A stretch of 64,000 nucleotides of DNA from a bacterium. Its GTDB lineage: Bacteria; SAR324; NAC60-12. The DNA lies in NCBI GenBank assembly GCA_965205865.1, contig CBDBHR010000030.1, forward strand, positions 1,056,001 through 1,120,000, written 5' to 3'. The notes below the pieces were generated by a model. The model was not told the DNA's origin and ran no database searches. It saw nothing but the letters and a program-made list of their open reading frames with translations. The translations under genes and the position numbers were made by a program. Below, piece after piece: positions 63,354 to 64,000 of the stretch (the first letter of the stretch is position 1; the number at the start of each line of letters is the position of its first letter).

Positions 63354-63666
63354 CCTCCATTGTTGCGCAATTCTCCTGATCCAAACTTGCTATAGGCTTT
63401 GCGCCGCGTAGTAGTGCTGAAATCATGCCTTGTTGTTTCAGGGAAGGAGAGGATTTCCGCTCGTTTGATTCAAAATTAGCTGTGGGAGGGTTCCCGCTTG
63501 ATCGATTGAACAATACCCCGGGAGGATGTGAAAACGATGGATCCTTCCCGGGAATCTTTTTTCAATGTTATTGAACTGAACGGCTTCTGACTGTCCCCGG
63601 ATTTGAGCAGATTTATTGATTTTTTATTTTTTTTTGCGAATCCCGCATTTATTTTATGTCAGGGGG

Positions 63667-63694
63667 TTGACATTGTGTTGTTTTGTGTTATAAT
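63667..63694 (+). promoter_or_regulatory. Consensus sigma70 promoter
   Basis: TTGACA-16nt-TATAAT with extended -10 TG. Homologous copies at 63936-63961 (14-nt spacer) and 61480-61507 (TACAAC). Confidence 0.75.
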
Positions 63695-63700
63695 CCTGCC

Positions 63701-63832
63701 ATCGCTGAGTTGCTTTGGTGAAAGAGGGTTCCCGATCGATTGAACAAAATCTTGGGAGGGTTCCCGCCCGTTCGATTCAAAATAGGTGCGGGAGGAAGTG
63801 AAGTGATGGATCCTCTTCGGGAATCTTTTTTT
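63701..63832 (+). ncRNA. Putative ~130-nt small RNA (one unit of the array)
   Basis: Lies between a consensus promoter and a hairpin + T7 tract, has no ORF and contains two stem-loops. Confidence 0.5.
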
Positions 63833-64000
63833 ACCGATATTGAACTAAACGGCTTCTGACTGTTCCCGGATTTGAGCAGATTTATTGTTTTTTTAAATTT
63901 TTTTGCGAATCCCGAATTTATTTTACATCAGGGGGTTGACATTACTTTATTGTGTTATAATCACGTCTTCGTTAAGTTGTGTTTATGAAAGAAGAGGGTT

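Follow-up and report, generated by a model that had tools for sequence, protein, structure and literature searches.

The window analysed here is a stretch of 64,000 nucleotides from a bacterium of the SAR324 lineage (NAC60-12), taken from contig CBDBHR010000030.1 of assembly GCA_965205865.1 (positions 1,056,001 to 1,120,000 of the forward strand). Its right edge is occupied by an insertion sequence (IS) of the IS66 family, which spans 61529–64110 (2582 bp) and consists of a left inverted repeat, a transposase gene and a 3' part in which three promoter–RNA–terminator units are arrayed between the transposase and the right inverted repeat. A remnant of an IS5-family element lies between the transposase gene and the first unit, and a gene for a family-5 solute-binding protein (SBP) follows the right end of the IS. 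On its left side, the IS is inserted into a resident unit of the same kind as those it carries, which breaks off within the loop of its first hairpin, precisely where the IS begins; the junction between this half unit and the IS is spanned by only one of 71 genome matches. The features are collected in Table 1.

Table 1. Features at the right edge of the window and immediately beyond it (positions in window numbering unless given for the contig).
Feature	Position	Strand	Basis
Truncated unit resident at the site of IS insertion (upstream box, promoter and the 5' half of stem-loop 1)	61440–61528	+	Direct reading; promoter listed at contig position 1117474
Left inverted repeat of the IS66-family element, beginning GTAA	61529–61552	+	25 genome copies; initial 14 nt reverse-complementary to the right end
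IS66-family transposase gene, 497 aa	61611–63104	+	Pfam DDE_Tnp_IS66 5.6e-47, zf-IS66 2.5e-8, DUF6444 5e-11
IS5-family remnant (DUF4096 fragment, ORF 63138–63353)	63081–63410	+	Pfam DUF4096 1.6e-15
Unit 1, with the remains of a promoter that lacks the −35, then stem-loop 1, two internal modules, a terminator-like helix and six T	63411–63562	+	nhmmer match 63485–63564
Post-terminator block, related in degenerate form to the inner portion of the IS right end	63563–63632	+	Reading of the sequence
Unit 2 upstream box and promoter	63633–63694	+	12/12 consensus match with TG
Unit 2 RNA: stem-loop 1, two internal modules, terminator-like helix, seven T	63696–63834	+	R1 match, 73.8 bits, at contig 1119696–1119834
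Second post-terminator block, then unit 3 upstream box and promoter (hexamers 14 nt apart)	63835–63962	+	
Unit 3 RNA	63963–64069 (window ends at 64000)	+	R1 match, 119.6 bits, at contig 1119963–1120069
Right inverted repeat of the IS, 19 nt, ending at 64110	contig 1120092–1120110		
SBP_bac_5 gene (family-5 solute-binding protein)	starts at 64151		Pfam SBP_bac_5 2.7e-50

The sequence-only reading had described the right edge of the window as a tandem array of self-contained small-RNA transcription units, and the 269-bp period that it gave is real. A repeat search returned a 151-nt direct repeat with 87% identity (63536–63686 and 63805–63955), together with smaller repeat families spaced 267–270 bp. 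The terminator-like sites lie where they had been placed, as a G-rich motif followed by six T at 63550–63562 and by seven T at 63819–63832, and direct reading locates the conserved upstream box at 63633–63644. The promoter of unit 2, with a −35 hexamer at 63667–63672, a −10 hexamer at 63689–63694 and a TG two bases before the −10, matches the sigma-70 consensus at 12 of 12 positions in a consensus scan, and combines a 16-nt spacer with an extended −10. Tandem Repeats Finder reported no array at the locus, where the copies differ by insertions and deletions and only about 2.5 periods are present; the repeat lies far beyond chance, because a covariance model (R1), built from an alignment of 43 single-module units, gives 110 matches in the genome.

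The expectation that the array runs off the window held in part: it continues past 64000, but with only one more unit. Extension of the contig, which had been proposed in order to count the units and find the adjacent gene, yields this unit and then the SBP_bac_5 gene, an ordinary member of its family. Nor are the three units alike, as had been assumed, since the promoter is intact in unit 2 alone; unit 1 has lost its −35 to the IS5-family remnant, and in unit 3 the promoter hexamers stand only 14 nt apart. The two stem-loops that had been assigned to each unit correspond in unit 2 to a duplicated internal module, whereas most units of the genome have a single module. The family had not been recognised from the sequence, in agreement with an Rfam search of the window and the array, which gave no match at gathering scores in the window and four chance-level matches (E ≥ 4, in a search up to E of 10) around the array. 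The description as self-contained cassettes of a multicopy family is thus supported. The array is not, as had been suggested, a local set of small RNAs serving a gene beyond 64000: it ends at the right inverted repeat of an insertion sequence, of which it forms the right-end cargo, and an IS end is among the outcomes that had been named as refuting the suggestion.

The assignment to the IS66 family is based on the transposase and on the termini. The DDE_Tnp_IS66 match (PF03050) covers positions 3–283 of the 284 profile positions with an E-value of 5.6e-47, and is accompanied by a zinc finger (PF13005; 2.5e-8). The inverted repeats begin with GTAA and have their 14 terminal nucleotides in common. 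GTAA termini are among the ISfinder criteria for this family, which includes a single-ORF, ISBst12-like group. Between the IS ends there is a single ORF, and the accessory tnpA and tnpB genes of canonical IS66 are absent, a condition that we take to fit the single-ORF subgroup and to be no ground for exclusion.

A BLAST comparison of 60900–64400 with the genome delimits the repeated DNA from about 61526 to about 64112, in agreement with the assigned ends. Two other copies in the genome cover the full 2.59 kb (98.4% and 94.5% identity), and seven more cover most of the transposase gene; the transposase itself has nine near-full copies at 94% identity or above. The genome contains 25 IS left ends; a search with the right end gives 70 matches, nine of which are left ends, and a right end is found within 7 kb for 12 of the 25 left ends. 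Identical 8-bp target duplications flank six of these 12 end pairs and enclose the unit or units, and three of the six insertions verified in this way landed inside other units. The copy in the window has no target duplication and has, for that reason, probably recombined since its insertion. As the 8-bp duplications enclose IS copies complete with the unit in six of 12 pairs, the repeat unit is very probably cargo of the IS66-family element.

In the simple copies of the IS, the left end is followed by the transposase gene and, after a further 190 bp or so, by a sequence that resembles a degenerate right end; one unit and the right end come next. The variant in the window departs from this order. 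Its homology with the simple copies stops at 63080, from where the IS5-type remnant replaces the original 3' spacer of the IS along with the −35 of unit 1 and alters the last codons of the transposase gene; the junction of the remnant with unit 1 occurs in 26 genome copies. The joints within the array recur as well, that between terminator and post-terminator block in 49 genome copies and that between block and upstream box in 44. Autonomous copies coexist in the genome with internally deleted derivatives that keep both IS ends, and with many solo right ends that have ragged left borders. These solo units retain the right IS end only, and their left borders vary by locus, so that they differ from MITEs, which have both inverted ends and a target duplication. 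In a comparison with empty sites in the other species of the genus, which was made for the left borders of solo units, homology was found on the downstream side only in four of four cases. The parent IS is present in the genome and apparently active.

The distribution of the units is narrow. With R1, 110 units are matched in the present genome and 70 in the single same-genus genome besides it, and among the 88 genomes of the phylum that were searched only these two have matches, with none in the 86 others. A BLAST search with the 269-bp unit likewise found it in two of 41 relatives. Outside the phylum, the distribution rests on loci found through the transposase, whose relatives in other phyla have at most 51% identity: R1 matches four of 80 genome-contig loci that hold IS66 relatives, all four from the same-genus genome, and none of 80 metagenome loci of such relatives; in all, R1 finds no unit beside 156 distant IS66 relatives. 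The related IS themselves, represented by nine copy pairs from six other genomes, have nearly the termini of the present element, measure 1566–1651 bp and have 16–107 bp between the transposase match and the right end, against 476 bp in the same-genus copy. The cargo therefore appears, on these comparisons of sequence, to be an addition peculiar to this lineage. The number of units depends on the threshold: R1 gives 110, and nhmmer 131 matches, of which 112 reach the 3' end. The units detected by nhmmer form 78 clusters of one to four units, and no cluster has mixed strands.

The pattern of variation among the units is the strongest argument that they act as RNA of the + strand. In the paired columns of the alignment there are 286 G.U cells and seven A.C cells, and among minority variants 72 G.U and seven A.C, counts that refer to cells of related copies and not to independent events. 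Without selection on the RNA of this strand, about equal numbers of G.U and A.C would be expected, so that the asymmetry points to pairing of the + strand RNA. Fold energies agree with this strand, as the MFE is −52.5 kcal/mol for unit 2 against −30.1 for the opposite strand, and −30.0 against −20.7 for unit 3. When compared with shuffled sequences, only unit 2 stands out (z of −3.4), with values of −1.2 for unit 3 and −0.85 for unit 1.

The unit RNAs are 105–140 nt long and contain one to four copies of the internal module. The consensus of the 43 units consists of a 5' hairpin and a long-range helix that encloses two small hairpins. This helix pairs a purine-rich stretch with the motif before and into the U run, and so adopts the shape of an intrinsic terminator; a simple terminator scan missed the helix, which encloses branches. 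Covariation among the aligned units, which had been named as a check, is weak. Four pairs do show double changes, the best of them in the 5' hairpin (CG 19, UA 11, UG 9), but over the 31-pair consensus 97.7% of 1329 cells pair and partner-shuffled controls still reach 97.2%, because nearly all changes are wobble changes. A small ORF or leader peptide was also considered and rejected: a start codon stands at a conserved place in 22 of the 43 aligned units, and the frames end after 9, 10, 17, 23 or 24 codons, one being without a stop, so that there is no conserved peptide.

Each unit has a promoter that reads outward, toward the right inverted repeat, and the conserved box upstream of the −35 has about 115 occurrences in the genome with one mismatch allowed. 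The distance between the promoter hexamers is variable. Among 42 distinct single-module units, the spacer is 12 nt in two, 13 nt in one, 14 nt in nine, 16 nt in 16, 17 nt in four and 20 nt in ten, and a tract of TTG repeats accounts for part of this variation (the series 14, 17 and 20). The earlier view that each copy is independently transcribed is accordingly doubtful, as a spacer of 16–17 nt is present in only 20 of the 42 distinct promoters.

Mapping to metatranscriptomes, also proposed earlier, was carried out at the level of contigs in four runs; two runs with the locus are labelled sponge metagenome. The summed contig depth in the bin with the module and terminator of unit 3 is 1305, 786, 188 and 100, and falls to 183, 43, 39 and 25 in the next bin, where the SBP gene starts. 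The transposase bins have a depth of 0 to about 28 (10–28 in the deepest run). The depth over the units is consistent with transcription and suggests that the units are transcribed, with the reservation that contigs of multicopy sequence cannot show starts, ends or strand and that DNA carry-over is possible. The bin with spacer and promoter has a depth of about 2 in all four runs; this low value was dropped as a sign of separate transcripts, because repeats are skipped there and the contigs show no ends.

An unexpected property of the units is their position relative to SBP genes. A tblastn search with the SBP of the window finds 147 paralogous loci in the genome, 39 of which have a co-oriented unit that ends no more than 800 bp upstream, and none an anti-oriented one. 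The chance that a random position and strand would satisfy this condition is about 1.3% (147 × 830 / 9.5 Mb). Seen from the units, with gene calls that combine crude ORFs, tblastn and Pfam, tblastn places an SBP paralog downstream of 37 of the 72 array-terminal units, and Pfam adds five SBP_bac_5 genes among 20 further downstream ORFs, for a total of 42 of 72. All 42 SBP genes are co-oriented with the unit. The remaining 30 terminal units have no SBP gene downstream; of the other ORFs among the 20 scanned, five are transposases from different IS, five belong to TauD, Fic, OMP, PhoU and PhyH (one each) and five have no family.

The association is unlikely to descend from one duplicated block, since the 42 unit/SBP junctions fall into 26 sequence classes and most must represent separate events; the junction of the window is common to three other loci. 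Where the IS end is kept at the junction (33 cases), 25 have a purine-rich motif and the ATG of a long SBP frame 22–41 nt after the end, a gap too short to hold a separate promoter. Of the 40 DNA-level SBP paralog loci listed for the same-genus genome, at least nine have a co-oriented R1 match just upstream, as judged from coordinates compared by hand. The sites themselves are not shared between the two species in any of five comparisons: the ortholog of the SBP of the window in the same-genus genome (93% identical) has no unit, and neither do the orthologs in the present genome of four same-genus unit loci (92–98% identical). With no orthologous site kept, recent mobility fits better than a long-selected role, and the bias toward SBP genes could reflect a preference for insertion sites and not selection.

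Taken together, the best reading of the unit is that of a mobile, outward-facing promoter with a leader or attenuator, which we judge to have about an even chance of being right; a little more tentatively, the cassette may serve as promoter and leader for the SBP genes. The cassette has reached 78 loci through transposition of the IS together with the unit, marked by the 8-bp duplications, through non-autonomous derivatives that arose by deletion, and through subsequent decay of the transposase part. In its proposed working, transcription would start at the cassette promoter (near 63701 for unit 2) and for the most part stop at the terminator helix, which would produce an abundant short RNA of about 105 nt. 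A fraction, assumed here to read through, would cross the IS end into the neighbouring gene. The conserved upstream box, a candidate site for a DNA-binding regulator, is a likely point of control, and the terminator a likely point of attenuation. The order of parts is that of an attenuator, in which a promoter is followed by a terminator hairpin with its U run and then by a co-oriented gene. No conserved antiterminator or alternative pairing was found in the unit RNA, and the terminator helix looks competent.

As the two ends of the IS are near identical, the mechanism of insertion alone should give both orientations, and the observed 42 against none suggests that, in front of SBP genes, only insertions that bring a rightly directed promoter survive. 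Subsequent loss of the transposase part would fit the ragged left borders of the solo units. A bolder extension, which we think unlikely to hold as a whole, is that the IS evolved a regulated cassette of box, promoter and attenuator RNA that, by landing before dozens of SBP paralogs of ABC importers, wired them into one IS-distributed regulon. The right end may, in addition, have mobilised or duplicated importer cassettes and driven the expansion of the family to 147, and the TTG tract, with its spacers of 14, 17 or 20 nt, may act as an on/off dial at each locus.

An alternative that we regard as unlikely is a free-standing multicopy small RNA acting in trans, either as an AbcR-like regulator of SBP mRNAs or as a protein sponge, for which the IS would be a vehicle and the position before SBP genes incidental or due to insertion preference. 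Two papers describe AbcR1/2 as tandem small RNAs that control the mRNAs of ABC-transporter binding proteins (PMC4152367, PMC3712013). The present units likewise have a promoter and a strong terminator shape each, with a structure kept on the RNA strand and a bin for module and terminator that is several-fold deeper in the RNA libraries than the bin in which the SBP gene starts. The complete absence of anti-oriented units before SBP genes would be unexpected for such an RNA, and half of the promoters are poorly spaced. The presence of csrA, one of the checks set out earlier, was verified (PF02599, 92 bits, C29:321790–321948) and would suit a protein sponge. The likeness to CsrB/RsmXYZ that had been seen in the many GGA motifs did not hold up, as a 106-nt unit has only about two GGA, both of them base-paired in the consensus and located within predicted helices, and there is no Rfam match.

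A role of the RNA for the IS itself is similarly improbable, whether in regulating the expression of the transposase or as a selfish hitch-hiker of no use to the host, with the regions upstream of SBP genes as preferred or tolerated landing sites. Such a function would be in line with the differences in sites between the two species, with the three of six duplication-verified insertions inside other units and with the degenerate second right end between transposase and unit in the simple copies, which indicates a modular structure. The layout also resembles that of ISPpu9, in which, according to two accounts, a small-RNA gene lies downstream of the transposase in the IS and occurs in extra solo copies (PMC8450116, PMC12288879). 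In a crude test, however, the predicted duplex between the unit RNA and the transposase region reaches −51.7 kcal/mol, close to 15 shuffled controls (−48.3, sd 3.9). Furthermore, related IS66 elements do without the unit, and the near-symmetrical ends leave the orientation before SBP genes unexplained.

Some transposons have subterminal transposase-binding sites near their ends, and the one to four internal modules near one IS end might act in the same way as DNA, with fortuitous look-alikes of a promoter and a terminator; this is very improbable in view of the strand-asymmetric variation, the perfect extended −10 promoter of unit 2, the relatives without modules and the lack of significant similarity between the modules and the DNA beside the left end (local scores of 13–18 against 14.4–14.8, sd 2.2, for shuffled sequences). 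IS-encoded guide RNAs, such as the bridge RNA of IS110 or the omega RNA of TnpB/IscB, have their genes next to a DEDD recombinase or a TnpB/IscB nuclease and specify the target. An RNA of this type is not supported here, since the transposase is a DDE enzyme of the IS66 type and no programmable segment was identified; in the six target duplications no sequence in common with the unit RNA was seen. Nothing suggests either the guide-RNA or the antitoxin-RNA array that the sequence-only reading had offered.

A comparison with known systems places the element closest to the single-ORF (ISBst12-like) group of IS66, with which it shares the DDE_Tnp_IS66 domain and zinc finger, the GTAA repeats, the 8-bp duplications, multiple copies and deletion derivatives. 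It differs from this group by 250–1000 bp of extra non-coding cargo, made of one to three promoter–RNA–terminator units. A search of the full-text literature found no account of this element, of an IS66 element with RNA cargo or of such repeats in this bacterial group.

CsrB and RsmX–Z are, like the present units, multicopy RNAs with their own promoter and terminator and with G-rich motifs, and csrA is present here; by contrast, the present unit is borne by an IS and oriented toward neighbouring genes, and its GGA motifs lie in helices and not in loops. Correia elements (NEMIS/CREE) of Neisseria, of which there are about a hundred short dispersed copies, bring promoters and terminator-like hairpins and are co-transcribed with genes. 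They have two inverted ends and, to our knowledge, no known parent transposase in the genome, whereas the solo units described here keep the right IS end alone and coexist with a parent IS that is apparently active.

Insertion sequences with outward promoters that activate neighbouring genes, which together with regulatory MITEs such as the Correia elements are the analogues in function, include ISAba1, ISEcp1 and IS10 with its pOUT. They share with the present element a strong promoter near one end and insertions upstream of, and co-oriented with, a gene. Here, however, a structured RNA and a terminator lie between the promoter and the IS end, tandem repetition of the cassette can occur, and the genes downstream are dozens of paralogous transporter binding-protein genes and not resistance genes.

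If the cassette drives its neighbours, one active IS lineage would be the source of promoters and leaders for about 30% of a very large family of transporter genes (42 of 147), and the differences in sites between two sister species would mean that a mobile element has rewired regulation within a short evolutionary time. For annotation, the some 110 small-RNA-like units found here call for caution: they are IS ends, to be masked or to be labelled accordingly.

Among published elements, the nearest precedent is ISPpu9 with its small RNA Ssr9. ISPpu9 is an IS110-family element of Pseudomonas putida KT2440, with a DEDD recombinase and no inverted repeats; there are seven copies of the IS and three solo copies of ssr9, and the pairing partner of Ssr9 is an RNA antisense to the transposase leader. 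Two accounts describe the position of the ssr9 gene downstream of the transposase, its additional solo copies and a modular transposition (PMC8450116, PMC12288879). The present element also has an RNA unit downstream of the transposase inside the IS, as well as solo copies, and would be a second case of an IS family with an RNA gene as cargo, in a different family. It differs from ISPpu9 in belonging to IS66 and in the number of its units, about 110, and its cargo, an expression cassette, is strongly tied to one large gene family.

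The family-5 solute-binding protein (SBP) paralogs, one of which lies beside the IS66-family element, occupy 147 loci in the 4.7-Mb source genome (G000), and their first ~150 bases are alike enough to give 50–65 DNA-level BLAST matches within it. Some of the SBP genes that lack a unit, the promoter-RNA-terminator cassette carried by the IS, are equipped with a different short module made of a promoter and a hairpin, and the 3' strand of the terminator at the end of this module is the same as that of the units. A 12-nt motif representing this terminator 3' strand has 97 matches outside units in G000; 11 of them have an SBP paralog no more than 800 bp downstream, in every case in the same orientation. 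Either these modules are units of greater age that have since decayed, or they are the host source of the captured IS cargo.

Coordinates of features associated with the SBP genes, the units, the IS copies and other tandem repeats (contigs C17–C30 belong to G000; G001 is the only other genome of the genus; position 1397 of L001 is window 63536)
Feature	Location	Strand
SBP gene start, window example	window 64151	
Promoter-plus-hairpin module, unit-less SBP genes (among others)	C26:294905; C29:461391; C29:468457; C30:809041; C30:705748	
Promoter-plus-hairpin module, G001 example	L189 2890-3000	minus
Signal-peptide-like SBP opening, examples	C30:783718; C30:836387; C28:360076	
Signal-peptide-like opening, G001 ortholog of the window's SBP	L189 2720-2830	minus
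Unit promoter spacer with TTG-repeat tract, examples	window 63673-63688; L001 1802-1815	
IS5-family remnant	window 63081-63410	
Internal deletion in two IS copies	window-equivalent 62484-62864	
IS copies with this deletion	C17:3339-4820; C25:257174-258652	
Long G/C-rich tandem arrays	window 8504-9407; window 14659-15040	
Short G/C-rich intergenic tandem repeats	window 22059-22120	
174-bp tandem repeat	window 49807-50227	

At seven or more loci, the long SBP frame opens, within the first 70 nt past the IS end, with a conserved stretch that resembles a signal peptide. The window's SBP has an ortholog in G001 in which this opening is in frame and lies upstream of a second start with a much better ribosome-binding site. 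The opening may extend the protein at its N-terminus or form an upstream ORF.

In the unit promoters, a TTG-repeat tract lies in the spacer that separates the -35 element from the -10 element. Spacer lengths among the 42 distinct promoters form classes of 14, 17 and 20 nt, with 12, 13 and 16 nt also represented, and only 20 of the 42 have a spacer of 16–17 nt. Variation in the length of the tract could act as a slippage-based dial of strength, or as an on/off switch, for the unit promoters; mere decay could also account for the differences in spacer length.

The promoter spacer of unit 1 contains an IS5-family remnant in which N- and C-terminal transposase fragments (DUF4096) are fused. The junction of the remnant with unit 1 occurs 26 times in G000 and, therefore, the composite was copied as part of the IS66 variant. 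Two IS copies have an identical internal deletion in common, and thus represent a non-autonomous derivative mobilised in trans.

Other tandem repeats are present in the window. The long G/C-rich arrays consist of a 63-bp unit (10.8 copies, 93% matches) and of 87/171-bp units (2–4.5 copies). An intergenic region carries short G/C-rich repeats of 7 bp (3.1 copies) and 15 bp (2.7 copies), and the 15-bp motif recurs within some SBP 5' regions. A further repeat, with a 174-bp unit (2.5 copies, 77% matches), may represent a repeated protein domain.
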